Shown here: positions 42,599 to 64,000 of the stretch, piece after piece
Layout: the number at the start of each line of letters is the position of its first letter
Numbering within the stretch: position 1 is the stretch's first letter
NCBI GenBank assembly: GCA_002687175.1
Contig: NYZP01000019.1
Location: 14,629 to 78,628, forward strand
Length of the DNA stretch: 64,000 nucleotides
Direction: 5' to 3'
DNA from: Parcubacteria group bacterium
GTDB taxonomy: Bacteria > Patescibacteriota > Patescibacteriia > Buchananbacterales > UBA6539
Position numbers and translations under genes: made by a program
The notes under the pieces: model-generated
Database searches by the model: none
What the model saw: the letters and a program-made list of their open reading frames with translations, nothing else
Told to the model about the DNA's origin: nothing

Positions 42599-43468
42599 TT
42601 ATTTTTCCCGCCTTAATGATGCCAACTGATCAGCCAATAATCCATTAAAAAATAAAATAACACCAGTTAATATTATAAGGATGCCAGAATTTGGCATACG
42701 ACCAAAAATGACAATACCATTGACCGAGAACAGTAAACCAAAAATAGTTAAAAATAAACTAATTGGCATAAATATTTTAAGTGGATTAAACAACATAATA
42801 ACTCTTAAAATTAATAGAATTGTTTTAAAACCATCTCTAAAATATTTAACGGAACTGTGACTACCTGGTTTTCTTTCTTGAATATGGATTGGAACATAAC
42901 CAACGTTAAGACCTTCTTTGAAAAAAGCTAAAGTGATTGTTGTTGACAAAGAAAATGAATTAGGCAAGATATGAACAAACTTTAAAAATAAATCTTTTTT
43001 AACAACTCTTAATCCTGAATTTAAATCAGGAATTTTTTTATCAACTAATACATTAGCTATCAACTGTAATATTTTCTTACCGGGCATTCTAGATTTTGGA
43101 CCTTTATACTCAACCCGAGAACCAACGACCATATCAAACTGATCAATTTTTTCTAACACCGGTTGCAAAATTTCGGCTTGATGCTGGCCATCACCATCAA
43201 AAAATAATACCCAATCATATTTAGAATTTTTTACACCAGTTTTCAATGATGCACCATAACCCTTATTATAAGGATGATTAATTAATCTGACAGGTTTAGA
43301 CTTTACTAATTCTGCTGTCTTGTCAGCTGAAGCATCATTAACAATGATAATCTCATGTTTATAATCTTTAAAAAAATTATTTAAGTTATCAATAACTCCT
43401 GAGATTGCTTTTTCTTCATTGTAGGCAGGAACAATAACTGAAATTCCCTGATTTTTAAAACTCATCAT
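42599..43468 (-). CDS. GT2 polyprenyl-phosphate sugar synthase (DPM1-like) with C-terminal TM helices
   Basis: ISVIVPAYNEEKAISGVI...VNDASADKT. Two C-terminal TM helices. Confidence 0.75.
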   Translation of the reverse strand: MMSFKNQGISVIVPAYNEEKAISGVIDNLNNFFKDYKHEIIIVNDASADKTAELVKSKPVRLINHPYNKGYGASLKTGVKNSKYDWVLFFDGDGQHQAEILQPVLEKIDQFDMVVGSRVEYKGPKSRMPGKKILQLIANVLVDKKIPDLNSGLRVVKKDLFLKFVHILPNSFSLSTTITLAFFKEGLNVGYVPIHIQERKPGSHSSVKYFRDGFKTILLILRVIMLFNPLKIFMPISLFLTIFGLLFSVNGIVIFGRMPNSGILIILTGVILFFNGLLADQLASLRREK

Positions 43469-44433
43469 ATAAAATCAATATTAGACTCACGGTCAGGATG
43501 TTTAATATGATAAAGTAATTTATTTATTTCATGATCTTTGCAACATACTTGGCAATCATTATCAACTAATTTACAAGCTTTAATCTTTTTTCTTTTATCT
43601 GATTTCCAGATATCAAGAAAACTGTGTTCATTCAAATTACCAAAAATATATGGCTCCTTACCAAGCTTGTACATGCAAACATTGACATCACCTCGAAAAT
43701 CGATTACTGGACAAAAATTATGGCCGTAGCAGGTATCATAAGTTCTAGGTTTTGTAGCATCTTCAAATTTATATTCTGATAAAATGATTTTAAAATTTTC
43801 GTCTTCTAATTCTTTCAGCTTATAAGGTATTTCAAGATTCTTCTGTTTATCATAGGTTTTGGCTAAAGCTGGTCTAACTTGAAAATAATAAACTCCTAAC
43901 TCTTTGGCTTGTTTGGCATATTCATAAGCTTTTGGATAACTTTCTTCAGTAACATTTAAACAAATACCTATTGGTGTTTTACTGCTGGTATATTCTTTGA
44001 GTAATTTACGATCAATACCATCCATAAATTTCTCGGTTAAAGAAATACGAATCCAATCATAAAATTCTGGATTTATTCTATTTTTTTCGTAACTTAAAGC
44101 ATTAGTAAAAAGTCCTTGAGAAAAACCAAGTTTATGAGCAGTTTCATTAAATTCGTTAATATTTGGATGTAGAGTTGGTTCTCCTCCACCAGTCCAGGAA
44201 ATAGCTTTAATACCCATTGAAGCCATGTCAGATAAGGTTCTAAGCATTACATCTTTATTAATACCGTCACCGCTATGAGTACCACCATAAAAACACCACG
44301 GACATTTAGCATTACAGTAGTTTGTTGGTGAAATCTCGATTAGTACCGGTACGTTATCGCCTGTTTTTAACCAGTCATTAACACGATCCCAATTCCAGAG
44401 TAATTTCATTTGCGGATTAAAGGTAACTTTCAT
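43465..44433 (-). CDS. radical SAM protein (non-B12) with Cys-rich C-terminus
   Basis: SPTNYCNAKCPWC (CxxxCxxC). C-terminal CQVCCKDH cluster. 322 aa. Confidence 0.65.
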   Translation of the reverse strand: MKVTFNPQMKLLWNWDRVNDWLKTGDNVPVLIEISPTNYCNAKCPWCFYGGTHSGDGINKDVMLRTLSDMASMGIKAISWTGGGEPTLHPNINEFNETAHKLGFSQGLFTNALSYEKNRINPEFYDWIRISLTEKFMDGIDRKLLKEYTSSKTPIGICLNVTEESYPKAYEYAKQAKELGVYYFQVRPALAKTYDKQKNLEIPYKLKELEDENFKIILSEYKFEDATKPRTYDTCYGHNFCPVIDFRGDVNVCMYKLGKEPYIFGNLNEHSFLDIWKSDKRKKIKACKLVDNDCQVCCKDHEINKLLYHIKHPDRESNIDFI

Positions 44434-45208: not shown

Positions 45209-46774
45209 CTAGGTAACCCGCGCTTCCTTCTGGGTCAATACTTGAAACAAAAATTTTATTCTTTCGGCAAACTTCAAAATTGAACCACTAAATAAATATA
45301 CCAATATTCCTTTAGAAGCTAACAAGCGCTCATTGGTCTTATTAAAAAAACTTCTTTTTTCTGGATCACCAATTCGAAAAATATGCTGTCTGATTAATAC
45401 TCGACTTAAATAATGATCATTATATCTTAAAGATTCTTTAATAAGATGTGGTAAAACAGTCTCGTGAGGAATATTTTCAAATAATGGAATGTGTGTTGGC
45501 GTTGACATTAAATAGTTACGCTTGTCTTCAAACGGTTCAACCCAACTAAAATTCATTTGATTTCTTCTTTCAGCTACTTTTTCTAATTCAGCACCAGGAT
45601 AAATTCTTAAAGCGCCAATACCACCAGCTTCAATCAAATACTTTCTTAATTTTTTATGTAATCTGACATTTTCTGAAACATCATCGAGGGTCTCACCAGG
45701 AGTGGAAATTAAAATACCACCACGAACAATAATTTTATTTCTGTTGAGAGTTTCGAGACACTTAAAAGTTTGATCTATACCAATCTTTTTCTTCATTAGC
45801 TTCAAAGAATTGTTGCTTAAATTTTCTATACCTAAGGTAATCATTCGGCAACCACTTTCGTAAAGTTTCTTAGCTGTTTCATCATCAACTGAATCAATCC
45901 TAGCCAAGCAAGCATAACGTATTCGACTGTCTAGATTCTTTAGACCGTCGGCTAACTCATGAAACCATTTTTTATTGGCGATTAAATGATCGTCCTGAAA
46001 AACAAAATCGGTGATTCCTTGATCTAAAAAATACTTTACTTGCTTTAAACAATTTTCTACTTTTAATGTTCTTAATGTTCTGGTCCACATTGCTTCGGCT
46101 GAACAAAAGACACAGTTAAACGGACAACCACGAGAAAAAATTAAATTAGCCATTGGCTTTTCAGTTTTGTTCTGACGAACAATGGACATCTTATCTAAGT
46201 CATCATATTCTTCTTCCTGTGGAATATAAGATTTATACTTATGATTGTTAGCCAGTGAGAAATCCGGCATTGGCAAGTCATTCAAATCTTTGACAGCATC
46301 TTGAGCAGGGTTAATAATTGTCTTACCATTTTCTCGATAAGTTATACCCTTAACTTCCGCCATTGACCTTTTGCCTTCTAAAACTTCAAATAACTGAACA
46401 ATTGTTTTCTCACCTTCACCGCGAATTGCCACATCAACATAATCTAACTTATCAATAATATCTCGGTGAACCATGGTGGGAAAAGGACCACCCAGTACCA
46501 CCAGTGACTGCGGACGCGCTGCTTTGGCAAGCTTAGCCGTGTCAAAAGCGGCAATGCGGTCTTCAACATTAAAAGATATTCCAATAACGTCTGGCTTAAA
46601 ATCTTTGACCATGCCTTGAAACTCTTCTGGGCTTGGATTATCCAAATAAGCATCCATATACTTAACCTCCGCGCCATACTGTTTGGCAACCGTGGCTATA
46701 CTGAGCATGCCAATTGGGCTTAAAATGTGCTTTTCGCCATAATACCCTATTGGATTTGTAATAAAAAAACGCAT
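45209..46774 (-). CDS. B12-binding domain radical SAM enzyme, paralog 4
   Basis: B12-binding N-terminal region, then CPFNCVFC. 521 aa. Confidence 0.75.
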   Translation of the reverse strand: MRFFITNPIGYYGEKHILSPIGMLSIATVAKQYGAEVKYMDAYLDNPSPEEFQGMVKDFKPDVIGISFNVEDRIAAFDTAKLAKAARPQSLVVLGGPFPTMVHRDIIDKLDYVDVAIRGEGEKTIVQLFEVLEGKRSMAEVKGITYRENGKTIINPAQDAVKDLNDLPMPDFSLANNHKYKSYIPQEEEYDDLDKMSIVRQNKTEKPMANLIFSRGCPFNCVFCSAEAMWTRTLRTLKVENCLKQVKYFLDQGITDFVFQDDHLIANKKWFHELADGLKNLDSRIRYACLARIDSVDDETAKKLYESGCRMITLGIENLSNNSLKLMKKKIGIDQTFKCLETLNRNKIIVRGGILISTPGETLDDVSENVRLHKKLRKYLIEAGGIGALRIYPGAELEKVAERRNQMNFSWVEPFEDKRNYLMSTPTHIPLFENIPHETVLPHLIKESLRYNDHYLSRVLIRQHIFRIGDPEKRSFFNKTNERLLASKGILVYLFSGSILKFAERIKFLFQVLTQKEARVT

Positions 46775-49396: not shown

Positions 49397-50444
49397 TGAC
49401 TCCTAATTCTTGTGAGAAGTCTTTATCTTTTAAAATTTTAATAATTGCTTGAGCAGTTTGGTCAATGTTCTCTTGTTCAACTAATAAACCGCTATAACCA
49501 TCTCTGATGGCATCTTCGGCACCGCAACCTTTAGTACCAATAACTGGTTTACCATAGGCGCTAGCCTCTAAATAAACTAAACCAAAACCCTCAAACTTAT
49601 TTTTACTGACAACAATTGGCGTTAACAAAAAAAGATTACATTTTTGATAGAAATCTTTTAGCTCATTATCAGATAAATTTTGTAAAAATATAACAGTTTG
49701 TTCTAATCCATGTTTAGCGGTTAATTCCTCAAGTTGATTAAAATAGTCAGCGTCTGGTTTACTGGCAACAATAAAATATTTAACGTCGGGAATTTCTTTT
49801 TTAACCTTGGCCATAGCGGCAATAGTAACATGATAACCTTTACGATGTTTCAAGTTACCGACACTTAGGACAATCGGAAAATCTTCTTGACCATGACGAT
49901 CAACTAACTGGCCTTGACTGGTAAATTCATCCAAGTTAATTCCATTACTAATGACTTCTAAATTATTGAGTTCTATCCTTTTGGTAATTTGTTGCTTAGT
50001 AAAATTACTAACACATATAACTTTGTAAGCCACTTTAAAGGATTTTATTAACAGACCACGAGAACGTTTATTGTCCAACGGGGCAACACCGTAAGTACCG
50101 TGAACGGTAATAAATCTTTTTTTAAATTTAGCTGGAATGAAACTAAAAAAAGTACAGTAAGGATAATCAGAAAAAAAATGAACTAAATCTGCTTTTAAAA
50201 AATAAGGTAAAATTTTAAGTGTTTGCCGTAGATAAATCAACGGCTTTGTTAATTTTTCTATTGCCGGTAAATCGTAAATTTTCAACTTCAAACCGTCTAA
50301 ATCATGTTCGTCAGACCTTGGTCTTTCCGAAGTAAAAACAGTGATTTGAAAATCACTACTTAACTGCTTCAGCATTTCCACAGAGTATCTCCCCTGCCCT
50401 TCAGTCACCGATAACGACCTGGTTAAAACTAACAATTGTTTCAT
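49326..50444 (-). CDS. GT4 family glycosyltransferase
   Basis: EX7E block GFGLVYLEASAYGKPVIGTKGCGAEDAI. Confidence 0.8.
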   Translation of the reverse strand: MKQLLVLTRSLSVTEGQGRYSVEMLKQLSSDFQITVFTSERPRSDEHDLDGLKLKIYDLPAIEKLTKPLIYLRQTLKILPYFLKADLVHFFSDYPYCTFFSFIPAKFKKRFITVHGTYGVAPLDNKRSRGLLIKSFKVAYKVICVSNFTKQQITKRIELNNLEVISNGINLDEFTSQGQLVDRHGQEDFPIVLSVGNLKHRKGYHVTIAAMAKVKKEIPDVKYFIVASKPDADYFNQLEELTAKHGLEQTVIFLQNLSDNELKDFYQKCNLFLLTPIVVSKNKFEGFGLVYLEASAYGKPVIGTKGCGAEDAIRDGYSGLLVEQENIDQTAQAIIKILKDKDFSQELGVNGKKWVRQFDWSEVIEKYKKVYG

Positions 50445-51814
50445 AATGCTGAGCGGACAAATTTTACTAGCCGAGTATAAAATTCCGGCTTTAGGAAATA
50501 AAAATTACCAAAATTGTATTTATATTTATAGTGCCAACGGTAAATTCTGGCTAACCACGGTGGCTGAGCTACGCCAACACGGCCGGCATATTTTTCTAAA
50601 TTTTCCCAGTCAAAATCTTTACCTTCTTGTTTTTTTAACATCTGATACATTTCCGTTCCAAAATAAGGGATTGGTAAGTTAGGAGCACACATCGTTTTTA
50701 TTTTATTATCAGCTAAAAATTTTTCGGTTTCAGCAATCGTCTGCCTGGTTTCACCAGGAAGATTCAAAATTGAATAGGCACCAATATTAATGTTGTGCTT
50801 TTTACAAATATCAATTGAATTTTGGGTCTCAGACATCTTAACCTGTTTTTTGGCCATGTCTAAAACTTTTTGAGAGCCACTTTCAAAACCAATGTTAATT
50901 CGGACACAGCCAGCTTTTTTCATTTTAGCTACTCGTTCATCTGTTAAATCAGAAACCCTGGCATTGGCGCCCCATTTAATATCTAAACCGGCTTCAATAA
51001 TTAAATCGCAGATCTTTTCTACTCGTGAATGAATTATCAAAAACTCCCAGTCCTGAAAATATATTCCCTTGATCCCATAATTTTCTGCCAAGTACTTCAT
51101 CTCTGCTACTACACTTTCCGGACTGCGAACAATGTAAAGTTTATCCATCATCTTTTTTAAACAATAAGTACAGTTAAATGGACAACCACGGGAAGTGATC
51201 ATCAAAGAAAATGGTTTAGGAATATCAGGGAAAGAATAGCTGTACTTGTCCATTGGTAATAAATCAAAAGCCGGGTAAGGCATCTCATCTAAACTTTTAT
51301 TCCGTCTGGCATCAGGGTTATTAGTGATCTGGCCGTCTTTAACATAAGAGATGCCGGCGACGTTTGAAGTATCTCCACCAGCAACCAAGGTATTTACTAA
51401 ATCTACGGTGGTTAGTTCTGGTTCGCCACGAATGACATAATCAACTTTGGCTCTTTCTAAAATCCATTCCGGTTTCACCGTACCATGTGAACCAAGTAAT
51501 ATAGTATGCTTGATTTCTACACTATTGATAGTATTTACCAAATTATCAATCAATAACTTAATGTGGGCATGCGATGGTACCTCCCAACGGTCCATGGGAG
51601 TTGAGGTTAAAATAAGCATGTCCGGTTTAAACTTTCTAATTTTTTCAATAGTACTGGCAAAATCTAACTTAAGAACGTTAGCATCCAAGAGTCTAATTTC
51701 ATGCTTATCACGAAGCAAACTGGCAATGTAAGCCAAGCCTAGCGGCTGACGTCGACGTGACAGCGTTTTAAGTTTTCCCGTAAAAAGAAATGGATTAAGA
51801 ATAAATATCTTCAT
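50441..51814 (-). CDS. B12-binding domain radical SAM enzyme, paralog 5
   Basis: B12-binding N-terminal region, then CPFNCTYC. 457 aa. Confidence 0.75.
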   Translation of the reverse strand: MKIFILNPFLFTGKLKTLSRRRQPLGLAYIASLLRDKHEIRLLDANVLKLDFASTIEKIRKFKPDMLILTSTPMDRWEVPSHAHIKLLIDNLVNTINSVEIKHTILLGSHGTVKPEWILERAKVDYVIRGEPELTTVDLVNTLVAGGDTSNVAGISYVKDGQITNNPDARRNKSLDEMPYPAFDLLPMDKYSYSFPDIPKPFSLMITSRGCPFNCTYCLKKMMDKLYIVRSPESVVAEMKYLAENYGIKGIYFQDWEFLIIHSRVEKICDLIIEAGLDIKWGANARVSDLTDERVAKMKKAGCVRINIGFESGSQKVLDMAKKQVKMSETQNSIDICKKHNINIGAYSILNLPGETRQTIAETEKFLADNKIKTMCAPNLPIPYFGTEMYQMLKKQEGKDFDWENLEKYAGRVGVAQPPWLARIYRWHYKYKYNFGNFYFLKPEFYTRLVKFVRSAL

Positions 51815-52461: not shown

Positions 52462-53616
52462 TTAGGAAATAAAATTTAACACCTTTTTAGCTCTTTTATC
52501 CCAGGTGTAATCCTGAACCGTAGTATAGGCATTCTGGGAAACCTTCTCTGCTAGCTCTTCGTTGGATAAAATATTTTTAATACCATCTGCTAGGGCTGAG
52601 GAATCATCTGGTGCAACTAGCACTGCATTGTCTGAATTTAAAACTTCTTTGATCGACGGAATGTCCGAAGCAACAATCGGTTTGTTAGCGGCCATATATT
52701 CAAACATCTTCATTGGTGAAGTGTAATGTTCAGAAATTTTATTCTTGCCTGAGTTAGGTAATACTAGGATATCGGCGGCTTTAAGGTAAACTGGAATATC
52801 CTTTGGCGGTTTATAACCAACGATTAAAATATTTCTTAAATTTTTTTCTGAAATAAATTTATTTAATTTTTTTTGATCATGTTCCATGCCGCCAACTATA
52901 ACTATTAAATCATTATCGGCTAAATAACTGGATGATTCAACCAATCGGTTTACTCCCTTCCAACCAAATAAATGCCCCGTGTATAAAATAATATTTTTAT
53001 CAAGCGGTAAACCTAATTGGTCGCGACACTCTTTTCTAGTTTTGGAAATTACAAATTGTTTTAGGTCTACAGCATCGGCCGATACCACAATTTTATCTTG
53101 ACTTACCCCCAATTGATTCTCTAGTAAACCCTGAAGACCTTTAGTGATAACAACTATTTTTTTTACTCTGCGAAAAAGAAATTTGAATAAAATCATTTTG
53201 TATAATTTTTTGCTTTCAGTAAAAGTATGAAGTTCAAAAACCAAATTTTTTTTAAAAAAACTTAATAAGAACAAAGAAAATTCATCTCGAGAATAAATAA
53301 TATCTGCTTTACTAAACAGTAAGCTAAAAAATGCTGAGATGGCAAACGAAGTATTTTGCAATGGTACGCTTAAGCCTTTAATTGAGAGACCAAGGTCAAC
53401 TAAATCTATTAGCGGTAATTTTTTAATTTTGAATCTTTTTTTAAGACCGTAATAATTAAAAGGATCTTCATGCTCCAGTTGATTATTAGCCCGCTTAGCC
53501 ACCACCAATTCTACGTCAACTCCCTGACCTTGAAAAGCTTCTACCATCTTCATTATCTGAAGACCGTGAGCTTTTTCAGTTGGAATTCTAGCATTTTCTA
53601 AATAGATCATTTTCAT
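52462..53616 (-). CDS. GT4 family glycosyltransferase
   Basis: GT-B layout with a C-terminal EX7E-type block EHYTSPMKMFEYMAANKPIVASDIPSIKEV. Confidence 0.75.
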   Translation of the reverse strand: MKMIYLENARIPTEKAHGLQIMKMVEAFQGQGVDVELVVAKRANNQLEHEDPFNYYGLKKRFKIKKLPLIDLVDLGLSIKGLSVPLQNTSFAISAFFSLLFSKADIIYSRDEFSLFLLSFFKKNLVFELHTFTESKKLYKMILFKFLFRRVKKIVVITKGLQGLLENQLGVSQDKIVVSADAVDLKQFVISKTRKECRDQLGLPLDKNIILYTGHLFGWKGVNRLVESSSYLADNDLIVIVGGMEHDQKKLNKFISEKNLRNILIVGYKPPKDIPVYLKAADILVLPNSGKNKISEHYTSPMKMFEYMAANKPIVASDIPSIKEVLNSDNAVLVAPDDSSALADGIKNILSNEELAEKVSQNAYTTVQDYTWDKRAKKVLNFIS

Positions 53617-53623
53617 AATAAAA

Positions 53624-54724
53624 CTAGTTTCCTGGAATCTGTTTTAAACTATTAGCTACGTACTCTTGCTCTTCTTTAGTAATTCCCAAAAATAGTGGCA
53701 AAGACAGTACTTGTTCAGAAACTTTATCGGTTATTGGACAGGGGTCACCCGATTCTTTATAAAAGGGCTGATCATAAACCGGTACCGGATAATGGACTGC
53801 TGTTTGGATTCCTAGCTCTAACAAGTCTTGTCTAACTTTATCTCTATCCCCTTCTAAGATTCTAATTATATATAAATGATAAATACCAGAGCCCTTATCA
53901 AGCTCTTTAATTAATTTAATTTTATTATTAGATATTAGATCATTATAAATTTTAGCAGACTTAATTCTAGCGTCATTATTATCTTCTAGAAATGGCAACT
54001 TTAAATTTAAACAAATGGCTTGGATTGGATCAAGGCGCATGTTATAACCTAACTGCTCATGTTGATTATTTTTGTTCTTACCTAAATTCCTAATAACATT
54101 AATTTTATTTTTTATTTCTTCATTGTTAGTGACTACTGCTCCCCCATCACCAAAAGCCCCTAAATTTTTAGTCGGATAAAAACTGAAGGTTGCAACATCA
54201 CCCCAATTACCAACGTATTTATCTTTAAACTTTGTCAGATGGGCTTGAGCACAATCTTCAATAACATATAAATTATGCTTTTTAGCAATCTCTACAACTG
54301 TTTCAATGTCACAAGATTGACCATATTGATGTACTGGTAATATTGCTTTGGTTTTGTCAGTGATAATATCCTCAAGTTTCGTAACATCAAGTGTTAAGCT
54401 GTCTTCATTAATATCGCAAAATCGTGGCACAGCTCCCACTCTTAGAATTGCGGTAACCGTGGCATTATAAGCATTCCCCTGAGTTATTACTTCATCACCA
54501 GCTTTAATATCTAGGGCTCGTAAAGCTAAATACAAAGCATCAGCACCGCTACTGGTGCCGATACAAAATTTAGTACCAACGGCTTTGGCCCAGCTATGTT
54601 CAAACTTTTCTACCTCTTCAGTTAAAATAAAACGACCCTGATCTAAAAATTGATCAACTGACTTTAAATAGTCTTCTTTGATTTGTTGAGTATTTTTAGT
54701 TAAATCGTTAAATGGTACATTCAT
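53624..54724 (-). CDS. DegT/DnrJ/EryC1/StrS-family PLP-dependent sugar aminotransferase (second copy)
   Basis: GTKFCIGTSSGADALYLALRAL, and SFYPTKNLGAFGDGGAV with the PLP-binding Lys. Confidence 0.8.
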   Translation of the reverse strand: MNVPFNDLTKNTQQIKEDYLKSVDQFLDQGRFILTEEVEKFEHSWAKAVGTKFCIGTSSGADALYLALRALDIKAGDEVITQGNAYNATVTAILRVGAVPRFCDINEDSLTLDVTKLEDIITDKTKAILPVHQYGQSCDIETVVEIAKKHNLYVIEDCAQAHLTKFKDKYVGNWGDVATFSFYPTKNLGAFGDGGAVVTNNEEIKNKINVIRNLGKNKNNQHEQLGYNMRLDPIQAICLNLKLPFLEDNNDARIKSAKIYNDLISNNKIKLIKELDKGSGIYHLYIIRILEGDRDKVRQDLLELGIQTAVHYPVPVYDQPFYKESGDPCPITDKVSEQVLSLPLFLGITKEEQEYVANSLKQIPGN

Positions 54725-54811
54725 AGTTGTTGACTGATTGATTCATCTCTGTCAAAATGTGAAATAGATATAAATTGGATTAATAATTAATTTGTTATTT
54801 AAGATAATACT

Positions 54812-55303
54812 ATGATTGATGGTGTAAAAGTAAAAAATTTAGTTATTCGCCAGGACATGCCCGACAAGGGAGAAAAAGGTGATGCTCCCAGTGGTGAAAA
54901 ACGCGGTATCTTATTAGAAGTTCTTCGAAAAGATGAAGGACTGTTATCTAAATTTGGTCAAACCGTTTTTACCATTTCTTATAAAAATACGATTAAGGCA
55001 TTTCATTGGCATCGAAAACAAGATGATCTGTGGTTTGTCGCCAGTGGTAAAGCCAAAATTGTTTTATATGATCAGCGTAAGGACTCGCCAACTCATGGTG
55101 AAACTCAGGTTCTTTACGCCGGTACTGATGACTACAAACTTATTTTGATTCCAGTTGGTGTGGCCCATGGTTATAAAGTAATCGGTGATGAACCGGTTCT
55201 GCTGTTTTATCACGTGACTGAAACTTACGTTGATTGGGAACCAGACGAAAAGCGTATTCCCTTCGATGACCCAACTATCAACTTTAACTGGGACGAAGAC
55301 TAG
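54812..55303 (+). CDS. RmlC-family cupin (dTDP-4-dehydrorhamnose 3,5-epimerase or 3,4-ketoisomerase-like)
   Basis: FHWHRKQDDLWFVASGKAKIVLYDQR...LIPVGVAHGYKVIGDE...YHVTETY matches the RmlC blocks (H-x-H/Q, WIPxGFAHGF, YK-T-Y). Confidence 0.65.
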   Translation: MIDGVKVKNLVIRQDMPDKGEKGDAPSGEKRGILLEVLRKDEGLLSKFGQTVFTISYKNTIKAFHWHRKQDDLWFVASGKAKIVLYDQRKDSPTHGETQVLYAGTDDYKLILIPVGVAHGYKVIGDEPVLLFYHVTETYVDWEPDEKRIPFDDPTINFNWDED

Positions 55304-55310
55304 TGGCTAT

Positions 55311-56027
55311 CTAATGCTTAAATAATTTAGTCTCGTCGTCAATCTCTAAAAATTTCTTCATCTTACTAATATCTAAACTGGTGTCTTGGGGCACCCACTC
55401 AGGACGAGGAATGGTTTCAATATCAGACCTCGTTCTTTTGGCATAATCTTCTAAGCTATTTCGCGGCCCACCCAAATTCATTACTCCGGTCGCTTCTGAT
55501 TTAGCTGCTTGAACAATCAATGGTGCCATCTCGTCAACATAAAGCTTGGAATTAAATTGGTCTTCATAAACTTTTTCCCAGGGAAATGGTATTGGACCAA
55601 AACTTAACCGAAGAATCAAATGGTTATCAATCATTCGAACAGCACACTCACCACCAACTTTTGACCAACCAAATTTATAAGGTGTTAAAATAGCTTCATC
55701 TTCTTTATGTGGTCCTGGTCCAGTATATAAATAATCAGTTGAAGTATAAACTAATTTGGCGCCAATCTGATGACAACCTAAAACTATATTAGCCGTACCT
55801 TTAATATTAATTTCTAATCCTGGCTCAGGATTTTTTTCATGTTCTGGTGGTTGAGTAAAAGCCGCTAAATGAATAACCACATCTGGTTTTTCTTTTTGTA
55901 AAACCTCGATCACCTGATCCTTGTTGGTAATGTCTAATTCGGCAACATCAGTAGCAATAATTTCTGGATCAACTTTTTGTATTTCACTACCCATTAAGCC
56001 GGCGCTGCCAGTCATTAAAATTTTCAT
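55311..56027 (-). CDS. short NAD(P)-dependent epimerase/reductase (SDR fold)
   Basis: MKILMTGSAGLMGSEI Rossmann motif, and YTSTDYLYTG. 238 aa. Confidence 0.55.
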   Translation of the reverse strand: MKILMTGSAGLMGSEIQKVDPEIIATDVAELDITNKDQVIEVLQKEKPDVVIHLAAFTQPPEHEKNPEPGLEINIKGTANIVLGCHQIGAKLVYTSTDYLYTGPGPHKEDEAILTPYKFGWSKVGGECAVRMIDNHLILRLSFGPIPFPWEKVYEDQFNSKLYVDEMAPLIVQAAKSEATGVMNLGGPRNSLEDYAKRTRSDIETIPRPEWVPQDTSLDISKMKKFLEIDDETKLFKH

Positions 56028-56665
56028 ACGTTTAATTGTTTAAGATAATCTAAACCTTCTTTAAAAGACGCCATAGCATAATTAGCGTCGCCACTGTTGG
56101 CTAACTGGCGATAATTTAATATTCTAGCAAACTCGGCTGATAATCTTCCTAAACGAGTAGTCACTTCTGGCGGACTGGCTAAAGCTTTTATTTCAATTTC
56201 TTCCATCCAGTTACAATTATTCAAAGTCTTGGGATAAAGTTTTGTGTTAACTTGATTTTTTTTGAAAGTTGCTAAATTTGTCAAAAATGCTCTAATAATA
56301 TGTTGTGGCGTAGAAATTATAATTGCTGAATCAATATTATTTTCTTTAGCAAATTGCATAAAACCTTTGGCTTCAGCATAAGTATGATCAGCCTCGCCAA
56401 TGGAGTGAATCACATCTTGCGGAATAGAAAATTTGTTTTCTAGCTGTTCTTTCCAATATTCAAAACCTTTTAAACCAACTTCGTATTCGTCGTGGCCATT
56501 GAGCACAATCATCTTAGCTCCTGAATCTTCATAATGAAGAGCCACTAATTTAATCATGTCATCCTTTAAATCATCCCAGCCATGGACAAAAATTGCTTCA
56601 GCTTTAACCTGATCTTGATTAAAAATTTTGTTAGTTAGCTCTAACCAGTCTTGTTGGTTTTCCAT
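56024..56665 (-). CDS. DUF218/YdcF-like domain protein
   Basis: IFVHGWDD...IVLNGHDEYE...ISTPQHIIRAF resembles the ElyC/SanA/YdcF fold. Low-confidence family call. Confidence 0.35.
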   Translation of the reverse strand: MENQQDWLELTNKIFNQDQVKAEAIFVHGWDDLKDDMIKLVALHYEDSGAKMIVLNGHDEYEVGLKGFEYWKEQLENKFSIPQDVIHSIGEADHTYAEAKGFMQFAKENNIDSAIIISTPQHIIRAFLTNLATFKKNQVNTKLYPKTLNNCNWMEEIEIKALASPPEVTTRLGRLSAEFARILNYRQLANSGDANYAMASFKEGLDYLKQLNV

Positions 56666-56668
56666 AAA

Positions 56669-57841
56669 TTATTCAATGATTCGTGGCTGCGGGACATGAG
56701 TAATCCATTTACCGCCACCTTGGCGAAACCAAGCTTGGTACTTATCAATTTCTGGTAAATGATTCCAAGCAAACAAGAAAGAATAATCAACATTTTTAAA
56801 TTCTTCTTGGGGCACAATTGGAATATGTACTCCTGGATAAAATTTACCTTGCTTGATTGGCGTATTGTCAGTAATAAATGGAATTAAATCAGGACCAATG
56901 TCACAGTAATTACAAATAATTACTCCCTTTGAAGTTGCGCCAAAACCACAAATCTTTTTATTTTCTTTTTTAACTTTATTCAAAATGTTTACTAACTCAA
57001 CCTTAGACTTTTTAATATTGCTGTTTAACTCCTCCATTTTTCGGTCTAGATCTTTTTCTTTATTCAACCATTTATCAACTTCTGGTTTCTTAGGAAAATT
57101 ATCTTTGTGACCAACGTACATTCTAAGTTCACCACCATGAACATCAATATGCTCACAGTCAAAAACATGATAACCTAGTGGCTCTAAGACATTATTGATA
57201 AACGAAATGGTAAAATACCAAACATGCTCATCATAGACTTGGTCATAAGAAGTTTTTTCATAGATATCCATAAAGTAAGGATCTTCAAATACCCAAACAC
57301 CTTCTTTGCCAATTAGTTTAGTCACATTTTTTACATAACTTAAAAAATCTTCTATATGACAAGAAACATTGGCACCAAAAACTAAACTAACCTTACCTTT
57401 GCTTAATATATCTTCGACGACTTTATCGTTCATGAAACTATTAATTACATGATGACCTTTAGACCGAGAAACTTCAGCCACATTTTTTGATGGTTCAACC
57501 CCAACTGCGGCCACACCTAATCTTTTCCAAGCTTTAAGCATAATGCCATCATTAGAACCAACTTCCACCACAATTCCCTCTTTAGCATAGGGCGCTAATT
57601 TTTGAGCAGTCTCAGCAAAATGCAATGCCATCCCTTGAGAAGTTGAAGAGAAGAAAGCATAATTTTCGTGAAACATTTTTTCTGGCGGTACTTTATTAAT
57701 TAAGCCAATCGCTTTTGTGTTAGCATCATAACCAAGCACCATGTCATAAAAAAACTCATCTTTAAATTGATCCTCAGTTAAAAAAGCATTAGCAATGGGC
57801 ATTTTGCCAAAATCAATTAGTGGTTGTAATTTTATATCCAT
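56669..57841 (-). CDS. SAM-dependent sugar C-methyltransferase-like protein (TylCIII-like architecture)
   Basis: Motif I VVEVGSNDGIMLKAW. The ~390 aa length and the C-terminal extension resemble NDP-hexose C-methyltransferases. Confidence 0.5.
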   Translation of the reverse strand: MDIKLQPLIDFGKMPIANAFLTEDQFKDEFFYDMVLGYDANTKAIGLINKVPPEKMFHENYAFFSSTSQGMALHFAETAQKLAPYAKEGIVVEVGSNDGIMLKAWKRLGVAAVGVEPSKNVAEVSRSKGHHVINSFMNDKVVEDILSKGKVSLVFGANVSCHIEDFLSYVKNVTKLIGKEGVWVFEDPYFMDIYEKTSYDQVYDEHVWYFTISFINNVLEPLGYHVFDCEHIDVHGGELRMYVGHKDNFPKKPEVDKWLNKEKDLDRKMEELNSNIKKSKVELVNILNKVKKENKKICGFGATSKGVIICNYCDIGPDLIPFITDNTPIKQGKFYPGVHIPIVPQEEFKNVDYSFLFAWNHLPEIDKYQAWFRQGGGKWITHVPQPRIIE

Positions 57842-58750
57842 TTATTTTTGTATTCCTTTTAAATTATTAATAGTTGTGGCAATCCCTTCTTCTAAATCAC
57901 CCTGAGCGGTAAATCCTTTTTGGGCTATCTTGTCAATTTTAACATCATAAGACAATTGATTCATAATTTCTGATTCAACCATCTTTACCTCTAAATCTGG
58001 AATAAACTTCTTAATTGTTTCGATAATATCTTTGACCGCCAAATTTGCAGTCACCACATTATAAATTTCTTCGTCAAATATATCTTTATTTAGAATTAAA
58101 TTTATTGCCTTAACGCAATCAGCTAAATCTAAATAAGGTCTTTTTTGATCCATGGCAGTTTGCCAAACAGTTACCGGCTGACTATTGACCGCTTGCCAGG
58201 TAAATTTATTAACCGCCGTATGGAAACGCATGCCAACTGACCAACCAAAAATAGTACCGAACCGACAAATCACATATTTTAAACCTTTAATCTTTAATTC
58301 AGCTAAATATTTTTCGGCATCGATCTTTGATTGAGCATAAGGACTTTGAGAATTAACTTCACTGGTTTCATCAACAATTGACTCTTTACTACCATATACA
58401 CTAGTAGTTGAGGGAAAAATTAATTTAACATTTTTTTCCAAACATTGATCAGCAACTTTTTTTAAACCATCAAGGTTAACTCGCTCAACTTCTTCTGGTT
58501 CTTTTGTCGAATAAGTAGCATCGGTAATTGCCGCTAAATGAATTACCGCTTCTACACCATCAAGTGGCAAAGCAGTATCTAAAATATCACCCTGAATGAA
58601 TTGATATTTTTTATCAGTTGGTAAATTAAAAAGTGAGGCATATCGCTGGGTAACTAAATTATCAACTAAAATAATTTCTTCAGCCTCAATTTCTCTGATT
58701 AATTTTGAACCGATGTGACCAAGAGCACCGGTAACTAAGACCTTCTTCAT
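57842..58750 (-). CDS. NAD-dependent nucleotide-sugar epimerase/dehydratase (SDR)
   Basis: VLVTGALGHIGSKL Rossmann motif. A YAQSKIDAEKY catalytic YxxxK. Confidence 0.7.
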   Translation of the reverse strand: MKKVLVTGALGHIGSKLIREIEAEEIILVDNLVTQRYASLFNLPTDKKYQFIQGDILDTALPLDGVEAVIHLAAITDATYSTKEPEEVERVNLDGLKKVADQCLEKNVKLIFPSTTSVYGSKESIVDETSEVNSQSPYAQSKIDAEKYLAELKIKGLKYVICRFGTIFGWSVGMRFHTAVNKFTWQAVNSQPVTVWQTAMDQKRPYLDLADCVKAINLILNKDIFDEEIYNVVTANLAVKDIIETIKKFIPDLEVKMVESEIMNQLSYDVKIDKIAQKGFTAQGDLEEGIATTINNLKGIQK

Positions 58751-58752
58751 AA

Positions 58753-59724
58753 TTATTTTTTAATTCTTTCCTTGGTTAACTTTAGACCTTCAGCTAGTGA
58801 ATATTTCGGTTGCCAATCAATTAAGCCCCGAAGTTTGTCTGAAGAAAATAATACTTTTTCAATTTCAATACGTTTACGTAAATCAGGCCACGGTTCAAAT
58901 TCTACTTTAATTTGACCAAATGTTTCGGCAATGGCCTCAGCAATTTCCTTAACACTATGATGATCAGTATGAGTTGCAAAATAAGATTCCCCAAATAATT
59001 TAGAACTATGAGCTGCTTGCCATAAAATTTCGGTTGCGTCATCGACAAACATCACATTTCTAGTCTGATGGCCATCACCAAAAATTTTAATTGGTTCATT
59101 GTCAGCAGCTAAACCAATAAAATAATTTACAAAACCAAAGGCTGGATCCTTTTTGCCATAAGGACCATACAAATTGGCAAATCGTAAGACGACTGTTTTA
59201 ATATCATAAACCGTATTAAAAACTCGATAATATTTTTCGGCTACTCCTTTGTTAGTCGAGTAGATGTCTAATGGGCGCTCACCATGATTTTCATCAATCA
59301 CGTCACCAACCGCTTTACCAACAACTGTTGAGGATGATGGATAAACCACTACCGCGTCTTTGGCATGATCACGAACAGTTTCTAAAAGTTTAATGTTACC
59401 AATGCAGTTAACTTCTGTATCAAAAACAGGATCTTTAAAAGATAAAGTGTGAGAAGTTTGGGCAGCACAATTAAAAATAATATCTTGACCAGTTACTACT
59501 TCCTGAAGTAATTTTCTATCTAAAATATCACCTTCAATAAAGGTGATTTTATCCATGACATCAGCCAAGGTATCTTTGGTGCTTAACAATTTTGGATCTA
59601 GAGAATCAACGGCAGTTACTGCAATATTTTCTTCTTGAAGTACCCGACGAACCAAGTTTGAACCTAAGAAGCCGGCAGCCCCTAAAATTAGCACTTTTTT
59701 TGGGTTTTTTAAGCTATTTTCCAT
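58753..59724 (-). CDS. NAD-dependent nucleotide-sugar epimerase/dehydratase (SDR)
   Basis: VLILGAAGFLGSNLVRRV Rossmann motif. A YSTNKGVAEKY YxxxK. Confidence 0.7.
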   Translation of the reverse strand: MENSLKNPKKVLILGAAGFLGSNLVRRVLQEENIAVTAVDSLDPKLLSTKDTLADVMDKITFIEGDILDRKLLQEVVTGQDIIFNCAAQTSHTLSFKDPVFDTEVNCIGNIKLLETVRDHAKDAVVVYPSSSTVVGKAVGDVIDENHGERPLDIYSTNKGVAEKYYRVFNTVYDIKTVVLRFANLYGPYGKKDPAFGFVNYFIGLAADNEPIKIFGDGHQTRNVMFVDDATEILWQAAHSSKLFGESYFATHTDHHSVKEIAEAIAETFGQIKVEFEPWPDLRKRIEIEKVLFSSDKLRGLIDWQPKYSLAEGLKLTKERIKK

Positions 59725-59825
59725 TTAAAATTAGTGGTTACTAATACAAAATAATAACACAAAAGGTATAAAATTACAAGGGTTTAATGTTCATTGACAA
59801 AGTCAAGTATTTTTAATAGGATTAA

Positions 59826-60908
59826 TTGTTGGCATTACGTCAATTTGCACCTATAAAACTCAGAGGAGAGATACTGATGGAAATTACATTGTTTGATTTC
59901 GTGCTTCATGTCATGGAAGAGATTGACAAGCAACGCATTCGGCTCAAAGATCAGATCTCCCAAGCGGTTGAGTCAACTGATCGAGGTAAACAACAAGCTC
60001 GGCTGGAACAATGGATTTATGATTTTCTCAAACAAGAAGTCATGGAATCACTCAAGTCGATGAATGCGGGGGTTCGGCTCAATGCTGAAGGTTATGAACC
60101 AGTAGAAAACGGCTTACCGGTAGAACAAGTGATCAATATTGATCCTTGGGATGGCACGGCCAATGGTTGTCGCTTCATAGATGGCGGTCAGCAAATTGGC
60201 TCCTCCTTTGCGACGGTGATCTCGGTAATGCCGGAAATGGAAAATACGACGTTTGGTGATGTTTAAATCGGCGCTGGACTTGACCTTCGTACCGGACAGT
60301 ATTGGATTGCTGAAGTAGGACGAGGGGCTTTTAGTGGAATTGAGGCAGCTCAAAGATCAACAATTCAAAGATCAGAAATACAACAGCTGGCTCCAAATCC
60401 TCAGTACCACCGCCACAGTCCATTACTGGCCTCTGAGTTCTGTCGTCAGATCAATTGGCTCACTCGTTTGCTGATCAACCAACCAGTTGAATGGACCGAC
60501 TGCGCTAGCAGTTTCATCAACATGCTACGGGTTGCTCTTGGTGAAACTGACTGTTTCTTCAATAATGTTTTCCCATCAATCTCCAAGGAGGGACAGCGTG
60601 GACACGAACTTGGTGCCATGATGCCGTTCATTAAAGAACTTGGGGCTTGTGCCATTGATACCAGAACTGGTAAAAATCTAATGACAACACCTTTCACCTT
60701 TGACGGTATGACACCGGTGATGATCGGCGTTGACGAAGATACGGTCAAGTACTACAAAGAAATGATGGAGGAAAATCTTGAACAAGAAATTCAAATTTAT
60801 CCTGGGCTGGCTATAAAGCTTCGAGATCTGATTCCGGCCATTCATAACGGAATTGGCACTCAGCGCTGGTCTCATCGAGATCTACCACGAGCTAAAGTCG
60901 AAGTTTAA
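59826..60908 (+). pseudogene. GC-rich inositol-monophosphatase-like gene split by one in-frame TAA (two ORFs in the same frame)
   Basis: ORFs 59826-60266 and 60468-60908 are in the same frame, with no other stop between them. The first contains the IMPase-family DPxDGT-like block INIDPWDGTANGCRF. A strong RBS (GAGGAGAG) precedes the internal ATG at 59877. Both annotated ORF starts are TTG. GC is ~45% against ~30% background. A terminator follows at 60920-60950. Confidence 0.5.
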
Positions 60909-60919
60909 ACATTGTTCTT

Positions 60920-60950
60920 TATTTCTGCCATTCCATTGGAGTGGCTCTTT
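60920..60950 (+). terminator. rho-independent terminator
   Basis: GCCATTCC-ATT-GGAGTGGC hairpin (8-bp stem, one G-U pair) followed by TCTTTTTTT. Confidence 0.6.
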
Positions 60951-60957
60951 TTTTACT

Positions 60958-62013
60958 TTAAAGTTCTAACAAAATATTTTTAAAAGTCTCACCAATCTTT
61001 TTTGATGTAATTTCTGCTTTAAACAACTGATAACCATTGTTGGCAATCTTGTCTGCGAAATCTGGATTATTTTTTAGTTCTAAAATCTTTACCGCTAAAT
61101 CCTTGCCATCAGCACCCTTACAAAACAAGATATGTTCCCGGTCAACAAAAAATTCTTGCATTGCTGGAGTGTCAGCGGTGATTACCGGTTTTTTTAAAGC
61201 CATGGCCTCAATTACTTTAAAAGCCGCAGTCATGTAGGACTTTTGAACATGGCCAAACATTCCTAAACAAATATCAGAAACTGCCATTTGCTCAGCCAAT
61301 TTTTCGTACGGTAGTAGATCAATAAAGTTAACTCTGGCTAAACTGTTTTTTCTACAATAATCTATTTCTTTATGATAATTGCCCAATTTTCCAATAATAT
61401 TAAAGGTTATACCTTCATTTTTTAATTCTTCGGCGGCTTTAATAATATAATCCACCCCTTGAACCGGGGCATAACTGCCGTGAAAATGGACGATAAAGTC
61501 ATCACCATCTCTTTTAATATCTCGAGGATAAAAAATATCTTCATCACAACCAATTTCTAGTCGTCTAAATTTCTTCTTTGAAATTTTAAAAGTTTTTACA
61601 AAATAATCAATATGGGTATTAGTTTCTAATAAAACTCTGTCCGGCAAAAAACTGGCCAACCAATCCATAAAATAATATTTCAAACCCCAAAAACTGTATT
61701 TTGAATGGGCCTTACGATCAAAGATAACTGAATCATATTCCGAAACAAACATGTCAATGACTAACTTTTTTCCATTTAGTTTAGCTAACAACCAAGCCAA
61801 AGGCATAATGGCATGTCCAGCAAAACCAACCACCATCACGTCATAGTTATTCTTAACAGCTTTATGTTTTTTTATTAAATCAAAATATTTCCTTTTTGAT
61901 TTTAGTTCTGTCCGGCACTCGATCACTTCAATACCATTTTCTTTTAAACCCTTTATATTAATTCTATTGCGAGTATACAAAGGATCAAATGTTCCAAAAT
62001 AACAAACCTTCAT
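60958..62013 (-). CDS. GT4-like glycosyltransferase (GT-B fold)
   Basis: C-terminal block AAFKVIEAMALKKPVITADTPAMQEFF (EX7E-like). 351 aa. Confidence 0.65.
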   Translation of the reverse strand: MKVCYFGTFDPLYTRNRINIKGLKENGIEVIECRTELKSKRKYFDLIKKHKAVKNNYDVMVVGFAGHAIMPLAWLLAKLNGKKLVIDMFVSEYDSVIFDRKAHSKYSFWGLKYYFMDWLASFLPDRVLLETNTHIDYFVKTFKISKKKFRRLEIGCDEDIFYPRDIKRDGDDFIVHFHGSYAPVQGVDYIIKAAEELKNEGITFNIIGKLGNYHKEIDYCRKNSLARVNFIDLLPYEKLAEQMAVSDICLGMFGHVQKSYMTAAFKVIEAMALKKPVITADTPAMQEFFVDREHILFCKGADGKDLAVKILELKNNPDFADKIANNGYQLFKAEITSKKIGETFKNILLEL

Positions 62014-63273
62014 CTAGTTTTTTATAATTTCTAAAAACTTATTAATGATCGCATCGTAAGTATAGTTTTCTAAAACTCTCTTCCGAGCATTGTCGCCCAA
62101 TTTCTTGGCCAAAGCCTCATCTTTTAAAATATTAATTACCGAGTTAGCCAAAGTGACTGAATCTCTAACTGGCACCACAAAACCGGTCTGACCATTAATA
62201 TTTATTTCTGGACTGGCTCCGGCATCAGAAGTAACCACTGGTACTCCACAAGACATTGCCTCAATAGTGACTTGACCAAATGCCTCCATCCAGATGGACG
62301 GCACAACAAACACGTCAGAGGCATTAATATATTTTACTAAATCCTTGAACGGTTTTTTACCAACAGCTTGAACATTATTTTGTAAGTTCAAATCACCAAT
62401 TAACTTATTCATCCACTCGCTCTCTCCTCCTCCACCAATGATTACCAAATTTGAATTAGGAACTTCAGTAATAATTTTTTGCATCGCATCAAGCAAAACA
62501 CCAATGCCTTTTTCGGCAAAATTTATTCGACCAATAAATAAAACTACTTTTTCACCTTTAATTCCCAGCTCTTGCCGTAATTCAGATTTTCTATTCAACG
62601 GTTTAAATAAATCTTCTTCAATGGCCACACCTAAGTCAACCGCTTTTGTTTGATCAAGACGGAAGGCCTTACTTTCTTCAATTGCTGCTTTACTTAAAAA
62701 AACTATTTTGTCAGCATTATCATAAATTGACTTGGCAAAAATTTGTTGAGATTTTTTATCCAATAAAAACTTTAATATTATATTAACGCCAAAATTCCGT
62801 AATACTTTATGCCAACGACGATTAGCAAAAATTTCTTCCGGACCACGTTTAAAATGCCACTGCCAAGCAGTAATTTGCCGAAAATAAAATGGTACTCCCA
62901 ATTGCTCTTTAATTTGGGCAATAGCGTAACCGCTTTCCCTAGCCTGCCAAACATAGACTAGATCTACCGAGTTTTGTTTGACTACTTTTAAAGTTACTTT
63001 TTGGGTTTGTTTAATATAAAGCCGTCTAATAATCTTGTTAATTGGCCACAACCAAATTTTATTAACCATTAATGGCCAAAAACGGATAATTTTTACACCA
63101 TCAACTTCTTTACTGCCGCGTTTAGTCAAACTTAACCACGGACAAACCACATAGACTTGATGGCCTTGTTTAACCAACTTCCGCATTTTTTCAATAAAAT
63201 AATGATACGTTCCGAGATGTTCTCCCAACTCTTTTTCAGTACCAAATTTATAAGCCACTACACAAATTTTCAT
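62014..63273 (-). CDS. GT4 family glycosyltransferase
   Basis: EAFGQVTIEAMSCGVPVVTSDAGASPEII EX7E block. GIGVLLDAM loop. 419 aa. Confidence 0.8.
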   Translation of the reverse strand: MKICVVAYKFGTEKELGEHLGTYHYFIEKMRKLVKQGHQVYVVCPWLSLTKRGSKEVDGVKIIRFWPLMVNKIWLWPINKIIRRLYIKQTQKVTLKVVKQNSVDLVYVWQARESGYAIAQIKEQLGVPFYFRQITAWQWHFKRGPEEIFANRRWHKVLRNFGVNIILKFLLDKKSQQIFAKSIYDNADKIVFLSKAAIEESKAFRLDQTKAVDLGVAIEEDLFKPLNRKSELRQELGIKGEKVVLFIGRINFAEKGIGVLLDAMQKIITEVPNSNLVIIGGGGESEWMNKLIGDLNLQNNVQAVGKKPFKDLVKYINASDVFVVPSIWMEAFGQVTIEAMSCGVPVVTSDAGASPEININGQTGFVVPVRDSVTLANSVINILKDEALAKKLGDNARKRVLENYTYDAIINKFLEIIKN

Positions 63274-64000
63274 ACAAATTGTTCAACAATTTTTTTAACT
63301 AGATTATCTAGGTTATGATTGTCTACAACTTCTTGTCTTAACTGTTTACGTAACTGAATGGCTTTATCTTTAAGATCAAATAATGATCTAATACTTTCTG
63401 CCAAAGCCTTTGGATTATTTTGTTCAACCATTAATTCTAAAGGCAAAATATTTTTAAAGGCTTCATTACTGGTTAACACTAAAGTCCCCGAAGCCATGGC
63501 TTCTAAAACCGCCTTATCAATGCTGCCCGTTCCACTAAGGTTTATAAAAGCATCCGCTATCCTTAAATAATCCGGGATTTGAGAATTTTTAATAGCCCCC
63601 AAAAAATGAACTTGCTCACTTAAATTCATCTTAGTCACCATGGTTTTAAGATTTTCTTCATAGGCCTTGTGATTCTCAAGACCTGGCTGACCAATGATAG
63701 TTAGGATAACATTTTTATCATCTAAAATATCAACGGCTTTAATCATTGTTTCATAATCCTTGGTTGGTGAAATTCGACCGATTGACATTAAATTGAATTC
63801 ATCTGTATCCTGACCATAGAAGCCGGGACTAAATTTTTCAGTATCAATTCCATGTCCGGTTATTTTTAATTTTTTGGTATCTAAACGAAAACTTTCCTTA
63901 GAAGCTGATAAAACAACATCTGCCAACTTTTCCATTTTTTTCATTTTATAATCAACTTGTTTATGCATATACCAGCTAACAACTTTTTTCTTATGTCGTT
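63270..64000 (-). CDS. GT4 family glycosyltransferase, C-terminal portion (gene continues beyond window end)
   Basis: EX7E block KAVLEAMASGTLVLTSNEAF. The reading frame stays open upstream of the listed ATG to the window edge (...RHKKKVVSWYMHKQ...), so the N-terminal domain lies outside the window. Confidence 0.7.
   Translation of the reverse strand, partial: RHKKKVVSWYMHKQVDYKMKKMEKLADVVLSASKESFRLDTKKLKITGHGIDTEKFSPGFYGQDTDEFNLMSIGRISPTKDYETMIKAVDILDDKNVILTIIGQPGLENHKAYEENLKTMVTKMNLSEQVHFLGAIKNSQIPDYLRIADAFINLSGTGSIDKAVLEAMASGTLVLTSNEAFKNILPLELMVEQNNPKALAESIRSLFDLKDKAIQLRKQLRQEVVDNHNLDNLVKKIVEQFV

Follow-up and report, generated by a model that had tools for sequence, protein, structure and literature searches.

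A premature in-frame TAA in an IMPase/FBPase-superfamily gene of a Parcubacteria surface-glycan locus: probably a very recent nonsense mutation

The stretch of marine Parcubacteria DNA analysed here, 64 kb in length and called the window below, contains a gene of the IMPase/FBPase superfamily whose reading frame is broken by a single internal TAA. Most probably, a nonsense mutation has very recently inactivated a resident gene of a surface-glycan cluster, and the locus would be either a young pseudogene or an allele of the sampled population that has lost its function. A preliminary description of this DNA had left three options (pseudogene, sequencing error or programmed read-through), and the first of these fits the evidence best.

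The gene is a single frame of 344 codons on the forward strand (59877-60908, both stops counted), and its parts are listed in Table 1 together with its signals and neighbors. Two ORFs of 146 aa had been reported in this frame, and they are indeed there (59826-60266 and 60468-60908), with the TAA and 67 further sense codons between them. Their TTG starts, on the other hand, are artefacts of a mechanical ORF listing: the N-termini of the homologues align at the ATG at 59877, which is the true start, and the TTG at 60468 sits midway through conserved sequence. Residues are numbered from this ATG throughout.

The expression signals proposed for the gene have fared well for the most part. The ribosome-binding site GAGGAGAG lies ahead of the internal ATG, and the start that it serves is backed by the homologue N-termini. 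The clean terminator is also present, as a GC-rich stem of 8 bp (60927-60945; -12.3 kcal/mol) that is followed by a T-run; its z-score is -3.83, and none of 200 shuffles folds as well. The promoter is a more equivocal case. A TTGACA-like -35 with a -10 can be found in the divergent intergenic region that the gene has in common with the SDR gene, but the region holds three such sites against 4.3 expected from shuffles. Because the count does not exceed the shuffle expectation, the promoter is plausible but lacks statistical support.

Table 1. Coordinates of the interrupted gene, its signals and its immediate neighbors (window positions)
Feature	Position	Strand	Remarks
323-aa NAD-dependent epimerase/dehydratase (SDR)	58753..59724	-	conserved divergent neighbor
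Sigma-70-like promoter candidate, TTGACA-17-TAGGAT	59794..59822	+	10/12 positions match
Shine-Dalgarno GAGGAGAG	59863..59870	+	read directly; 6 nt upstream of ATG 59877
N-terminal 129 codons of the IMPase/FBPase-superfamily gene	59877..60263	+	carries K38, E71, D89-P-W-D92-G93-T94
Premature in-frame TAA	60264..60266	+	frame reading, homologue alignment
C-terminal 213 codons and normal TAA stop	60267..60908	+	all family-invariant residues kept
15-nt tandem duplication (QRSTI/QRSEI)	60350..60379	+	variable, low-confidence surface loop
Intrinsic-terminator-like hairpin and T-run	60927..60955	+	between the convergent IMPase-like and GT1 genes
351-aa GT1-family glycosyltransferase	60958..62013	-	conserved convergent neighbor

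The evidence that the two halves are one gene comes from intact homologues. When the joined translation was compared with 5.8 billion protein clusters, 17 intact homologues of 319-345 aa were recovered, with 34-54% identity and coverage of 81-100% of the joined translation. All 17 are single chains, and their alignment passes straight through the position of the stop with the frame unchanged. Because these homologues cover both halves, the interrupted frame is one gene and not two unrelated proteins.

Apart from the stop, the gene appears undamaged. The alignment has 26 invariant columns, 18 of them after the stop, and the window sequence matches every one; the invariant residues retained past the TAA include H180, N193, D208, D225, N229-N230, G239-QRGHEL-245, F275, T279-P280 and Y293. 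There are no private substitutions at positions where all other sequences agree, while several of the intact homologues have from one to seven. Comparison of the 344-codon frame with the homologues revealed no frameshift and no second stop. The short tandem duplication downstream of the TAA falls where the alignment is rich in indels, and residues 161-165 have pLDDT values below 50 in an AlphaFold2 model.

The column interrupted by the stop is occupied by a sense codon in each of the 17 homologues, variously M, L, T, I, E, V, F or A, and the residue is hydrophobic in most. The closest two homologues read TFGDV-L-IGAGL (codon CTC; locus L007) and TFGDV-M-IGAGL (codon ATG; locus L010), and the window reads TFGDV-TAA-IGAGL. 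TTA is the commonest leucine codon of the genome (1029 of 2143 Leu codons). The Leu and Met of the two closest homologues suggest a change from TTA (Leu) to TAA; most parsimoniously, the ancestral codon would have been TTA, altered by one T-to-A substitution.

One might ask whether each half is translated on its own and the two products then combine into a split enzyme, given that the ORF listing shows two 146-aa ORFs and that gene callers report products of 129-146 aa and 75 aa from the locus. This is extremely improbable. Between the stop and the TTG at 60468 the frame contains neither ATG nor GTG, a Shine-Dalgarno sequence is likewise absent, and a start at that TTG, 67 codons on, would delete conserved strands along with H180 and N193. 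In the structural model residue 130 immediately precedes beta-strand 132-136 of the N-terminal domain and is not at a domain boundary, and the homologues are single-chain without exception.

Membership in the IMPase/FBPase superfamily, which had been proposed from the DPxDGT-type metal-binding block (DPWDGT at residues 89-94), is agreed upon by a fold search, by profile alignment (hhalign probability 100%) and by the alignment of the block itself. An IMPase HMM applied to the joined translation gave only a weak match: Pfam PF00459 (Inositol_P) scored 13.7 bits (E = 0.044), short of the gathering threshold of 27 bits, and the superfamily assignment was supplied by the profile and fold methods. 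The sub-threshold match extends over the stop (residues 68-228), and NCBIfam PRK12676 (FBPase/IMPase) matches the window protein with E = 0.0017. There is no precomputed Pfam hit for the window protein or for 16 of the 17 homologues; the Inositol_P threshold is passed by the relative P0020 (34.2 bits) and by sister group A2. A profile of the family, searched against 1.84 billion representative proteins, found 14 below 1e-30 and about 140 at E <= 0.001, and all six of the distant matches that were sampled exceed the Inositol_P threshold. Aligned by hhalign to the Inositol_P-positive relatives, the same profile gave a probability of 100% and E = 1.8e-44.

More specific alignments place the conserved blocks on those of known enzymes. 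Against IMPases of the PDB the profile reached E = 0.002, with K38...E71...DPxDGT aligned to EE...DPIDGT of S. aureus IMPase. Against E. coli SuhB, hhalign gave a probability of 95% and placed DPWDGT on DPLDGT, GETDCFFNN on GRVDGFFE, and the invariant GQRGHELGA on GLRPWDFAAG, with H243-E244 opposite W-D. The AlphaFold2 model, built from the homologue alignment, has a pLDDT of 88.9 and a pTM of 0.88 and shows one two-domain fold that is continuous across residue 130. Foldseek returned 222 PDB matches with E <= 0.001 (E down to 5e-12, TM up to 0.77), and every one of the best 50 is an FBPase, an IMPase, an SBPase or some other phosphatase of the IMPase family. The predicted structure is that of the two-domain alpha-beta-alpha-beta-alpha sugar phosphatases.

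The residues E71, D89, D92, G93 and T94 are invariant in 18 of 18 sequences. The metal-binding set thus appears to be kept, with Glu (E244) replacing the Asp of IMPases, as in FBPase, and these residues are putative ligands. The window protein scores below the Pfam threshold and belongs to a clade with no characterised member, so that its enzymatic function, presumably a Mg2+-dependent phosphomonoesterase activity, is a prediction. A literature search found no papers on inositol monophosphatase in Patescibacteria.

Comparison with known enzymes sets the family somewhat apart. The two-domain fold is like that of the dual-specificity IMPase/FBPase proteins of archaea and bacteria, such as AF2372, TM1415 and PH1897 (PRK12676), and of the classical IMPase SuhB (PF00459), with TM-scores of up to 0.77 when normalised to the target. 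The window family and the IMPases have in common the invariant Glu (E71), the DPxDGT block and the G-x-x-D-x-F-F strand, and the alignment to SuhB would also put a carboxylate at the WD position. However, identity to solved structures is only 13-16%, and the WDxAAG of IMPases appears to be replaced by the invariant GQRGHELGA, with Glu for Asp, as in FBPase, and His for Trp. The family also differs in an insertion of about 7 residues before GQRGHELGA and in an extra C-terminal extension of about 50 residues, and the window gene resides in a glycan cluster and not in central metabolism. Class I FBPase and sedoheptulose-1,7-bisphosphatase are the top Foldseek matches (E = 5e-12 to 1e-10), and the window protein resembles them in length (about 330 aa). 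The third metal ligand of FBPase is a Glu (E280), which the putative ligand E244 would match, the alignment made here being to SuhB only. The TM-scores to FBPase and SBPase are nevertheless only 0.55-0.65, there is no sequence-level match to FBPase models, and the context of the window gene contains no gluconeogenic or Calvin-cycle genes.

A CysQ-like enzyme in a sulfated-glycan pathway had also been suggested. CysQ 3'(2'),5'-bisphosphate nucleotidase (TIGR01331) is indeed a member of this superfamily and shares the DPxDGT block. However, the window protein does not match the CysQ model at E <= 1, and its distant relatives reach 25-35 bits on that model against a cut-off of 228.8 bits. The sulfated-glycan idea is likewise unsupported, because none of the 40 scanned ORFs of the window is a sulfotransferase or PAPS-synthesis gene.

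TAA terminates 33 of 56 large ORFs, more than any other stop, and 92.8% of the window is coding under table 11. Reassignment of TAA, which had been raised as a very unusual possibility, is excluded by this usage and by the normal coding density under the standard code. A frameshift or slippage event at GTT-TAA-A was also considered and rejected, because homology continues in the zero frame directly past the stop; the +1 frame meets a TGA within a few codons.

The stop could instead be real but leaky, with UAA read through at a low level by a near-cognate tRNA or by an undetected suppressor tRNA, so that some full-length enzyme is made and the gene is down-regulated, not dead. UAA is the most efficiently terminated bacterial stop, and it is also the main terminator in this DNA. 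The A that follows it (TAA-A) may not provide the strongest termination context. The frame and all catalytic residues are preserved downstream, and the column is variable and mostly hydrophobic, with many residues tolerated. A recent mutation would account just as well for the intact sequence downstream, however, and the column is free of stops in all 17 homologues. Folding of the 100 nt that follow the stop is no better than that of shuffles (z = -1.17) and so gives no sign of a read-through stimulator. No tRNA gene that might encode a suppressor was found in the 64-kb window, where Rfam and tRNA scans returned nothing. A leaky stop is accordingly very unlikely, and programmed read-through as first proposed finds no backing in the homologues or in the downstream structure.

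The recurrence of the TAA bears on whether it is present in the organism at all. The identical TAA is found in the 82-kb ENA TARA scaffold_181, which is 100% identical to window positions 52753-64000, and in ERZ5402418 NODE_29142, which is 100% identical across 58359-60494. It is also found in the NCBI MAG (a 91.5-kb contig), where the N-terminal fragment is annotated as the 129-aa 'hypothetical protein' MAF13915.1, in the TARA_037_MES gene catalogue (as a 146-aa call) and in a JGI contig of 1509 bp. The contigs retrieved by exact-protein look-ups of both neighbors are 99.95-100% identical to the window, and they carry the same stop wherever they reach codon 130. An exact look-up of the 145-aa call matched no record, though this product does appear in the cluster table. 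Since no fewer than four public assemblies or catalogues agree on the TAA, an assembler artefact is unlikely, although these assemblies, which come from differing pipelines, may partly derive from common Tara Oceans read sets.

If the TAA were an error of sequencing or consensus, or a minority variant that the assembler chose, the real gene would be intact and functional. Such an error would account for a gene that is otherwise perfect in its invariant residues, expression signals and frame. The small contigs have a coverage of only 2.4-2.8x, and several assemblies end inside the gene (at 60494, 60607, 60648 and 60663), which hints at local coverage problems or microdiversity; no repeats that could explain these breaks were detected. 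Against an error stands the occurrence of the same base in at least four assemblies and catalogues of differing pipelines, since substitution errors that reproduce across Illumina assemblies are rare. In addition, no intact near-identical allele occurs among some 15 billion proteins, where the best match has 54% identity, and none was found in the genome and metagenome collections, where the relatives have at most 53% identity. An error is thus unlikely.

The earlier suggestion that the gene was recently acquired and inserted between two operon blocks can be set against the distribution and the neighborhood of the family. The family is rare and, so far, confined to CPR bacteria. Among 185,579 GTDB species representatives only 5 have it, four of them Saccharibacteria and the fifth a member of the Doudnabacteria. 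JGI metagenomes contribute three loci, and no relatives were found in phage and plasmid collections.

Saccharibacteria MAGs and unclassified metagenome contigs share the neighborhood of the gene. Orthologues of the SDR gene adjoin the IMPase-like gene in L010 (78% identity), L006 (67%) and L008 (35%), and further SDR genes lie close by in L019-L021; the neighboring SDR proteins range from 315 to 323 aa. Orthologues of the GT1 gene (51-55% identity) adjoin the IMPase-like gene in L007, L010, L011 and L012, and a GT1 gene of 350/351 aa is adjacent in L021 and one gene away in L020. A sugar C-methyltransferase of 390/391 aa (70-79% identical), a DegT aminotransferase and dTDP-sugar isomerases are also recurring partners. 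L010 has exactly the order and strands of the window: C-methyltransferase, SDR302, SDR323, IMPase-like gene and GT351.

The 64-kb window as a whole is a glycan super-locus. It contains many GT1 and GT2 genes, a Wzy-type ligase, a flippase, a priming transferase, a formyltransferase and a deacetylase, along with five B12-radical-SAM paralogues and two SPASM radical-SAM genes. The cluster would make a C-methylated amino or deoxy sugar for a surface glycan, and it is in this pathway that the IMPase-like gene would have its role.

The reading in which a foreign gene arrived recently, as a GC-rich island between glycosyltransferase operons, and is already decaying concerns the origin of the gene and can therefore coexist with the other readings. 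It began from a compositional contrast that is real: the gene has 45.5% GC, compared with 33.9% in the window and 33-36% in the neighboring genes, and its GC3 is 0.42 against 0.23-0.29. The gene also lies on the opposite strand to all of its neighbors and has its own expression signals. However, the excess recurs in most of the homologous loci, where the gene is richer in GC than its flanks (0.59 vs 0.48, 0.52 vs 0.43 and 0.44 vs 0.37). GC1 (0.55-0.61) and GC2 (0.38-0.46) are high and nearly constant over the homologues, whatever the GC content of the host, and much of the excess is therefore a matter of protein composition; as a sign of acquisition it finds no support. GC3 is also raised in L010, L006 and L011, and is not raised in L007 or L008.

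The position of the gene argues in the same direction. The SDR323, GT351 and C-methyltransferase orthologues lie beside it in distant CPR genomes, and the arrangement in L010 is identical down to the strand inversion. Neither mobility genes nor convincing direct or inverted repeats were found flanking the gene. Insertion of a mobile element was rejected on the grounds that flanking repeats and phage or plasmid relatives are missing and synteny is conserved. The conserved synteny and the family-wide GC excess together indicate a resident member of the cluster and not a recent insertion, and recent acquisition is quite unlikely. An older xenologous replacement within the cluster may have occurred, since GC3 is still elevated.

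The favored explanation, a recent nonsense mutation in a resident gene, can be stated as follows. The intact form would be an FBPase/IMPase-superfamily enzyme of about 320-345 aa and a standing component of the surface-glycan cluster, with the 315-323-aa SDR, the 350/351-aa GT1, the 390-aa C-methyltransferase and the DegT aminotransferase as its constant partners. One base substitution would have converted codon 130 to UAA, and translation from the ATG at 59877 should then stop after 129 residues. The resulting fragment would be without three strands of the N-terminal domain (132-155, half of the sheet), the whole C-terminal domain, D225 and E244. Without its C-terminal domain and E244, the putative third metal ligand, the fragment should yield no active enzyme, and we infer a loss of function; and since nothing else in the gene is damaged, the inactivation would be very recent.

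The locus resembles the unitary nonsense pseudogenes of bacteria in having one premature stop relative to intact orthologues, in the loss of essential parts and in the presence of expression signals. Unlike them, it has no visible secondary decay. The absence of such decay is equally expected from a sequencing error or from a tolerated, leaky stop, and for this reason a pseudogene is indistinguishable by assembled sequence alone from a polymorphic loss-of-function allele or an error.

The interruption itself is ordinary: one MAG gene would have taken one nonsense mutation, and there is no evidence for recoding. For annotation, the two 'hypothetical proteins' (e.g. MAF13915.1) should be merged as one disrupted IMPase-superfamily gene. 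What is mildly novel is the family, an unannotated, CPR-restricted clade with the IMPase/FBPase fold that is linked to a cluster for a C-methylated amino-sugar glycan. A bolder proposal, which we regard as doubtful though worth stating, is that the intact proteins form an undescribed CPR-restricted FBPase/IMPase branch, marked by GQRGHELGA, that dephosphorylates a sugar or cyclitol phosphate in a C-methyl-amino-sugar pathway (SDR, C-methyltransferase, DegT and GT1); the TAA would then be an on/off variant of the glycan at the population level, perhaps selected by phage or by host attachment. Pathways of this kind currently have no assigned phosphatase step, and the intact homologues may represent a further reaction of surface-glycan biosynthesis in CPR bacteria.

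The IMPase-like gene exceeds its flanks by 6-12 GC points in the window and in the homologous loci L002, L004, L005, L006, L007, L010 and L011, and this excess holds in hosts that differ in GC. The margin falls to only about 1.5 GC points in L008 and in L001, a copy of L008. Protein composition by itself cannot account for the gene's GC3 excess.

Within the gene, a 15-nt unit occurs twice in tandem at window positions 60350-60379 (TCAAAGATCAACAAT / TCAAAGATCAGAAAT), coding for QRSTI/QRSEI. This duplication falls in an indel-rich part of the family alignment, and the structural model places it in the variable loop (pLDDT < 50 at residues 161-165). Four near-identical contigs from other assemblies stop within the gene, between window positions 60494 and 60663 (see table). 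A repeat search of the window found no repeat that accounts for these ends. In the gene's 3' half, either microdiversity among strains or low coverage (2.4-2.8x) may have caused them. The contig L017 has one mismatch to the window, at position 60612, 5 nt from the L017 end.

Among the more distant relatives, the sister group A2 (P0027-P0058) is a broader set of proteins of about 270-310 aa that pass the Pfam Inositol_P threshold and in which WDxAAG is replaced by a shared QKxHELGA motif; not one of them reaches any NCBIfam equivalog cut-off. Three genes past the convergent GT1-family glycosyltransferase gene (GT351), in the same operon direction, there is a gene for a NUDIX hydrolase, and in the 553-aa distant relative P0057 a NUDIX part is fused to an IMPase part. 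The NUDIX neighbor and this fusion hint that a nucleotide-sugar pyrophosphatase and a phosphatase may act jointly.

Coordinates of features in and around the glycan-biosynthesis locus (window positions unless stated)
Feature	Position	Strand
B12-binding radical-SAM paralogue 1	28562-30016	+
B12-binding radical-SAM paralogue 2	33856-35286	-
B12-binding radical-SAM paralogue 3	41157-42593	-
B12-binding radical-SAM paralogue 4	45209-46774	-
B12-binding radical-SAM paralogue 5	50441-51814	-
SPASM radical-SAM gene 1	30088-31077	+
SPASM radical-SAM gene 2	43465-44433	-
Protein without Pfam match	56024-56665	-
Protein without Pfam match	37247-39274	-
Protein without Pfam match	32079-33791	-
Protein without Pfam match	4828-6924	+
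NUDIX hydrolase gene	894-1430 of L013 (matching ENA TARA scaffold), just past right end of window	
Contig end, L014	60494	
Contig end, L017	60607	
Contig end, L016	60648	
Contig end, L018	60663	

Among the ORFs of the glycan locus that were scanned, four proteins spanning 213-698 aa gave no Pfam match. Of these, the 213-aa protein has a counterpart with 51% identity across 140 aa in L010, a syntenic locus. This single CPR glycan-biosynthesis locus also contains five B12-binding radical-SAM paralogues and two SPASM radical-SAM genes. Cobalamin-dependent radical enzymes are thus unusually dense here for a reduced-genome organism, suggesting a glycan that is heavily C-methylated or tailored by other radical chemistry.
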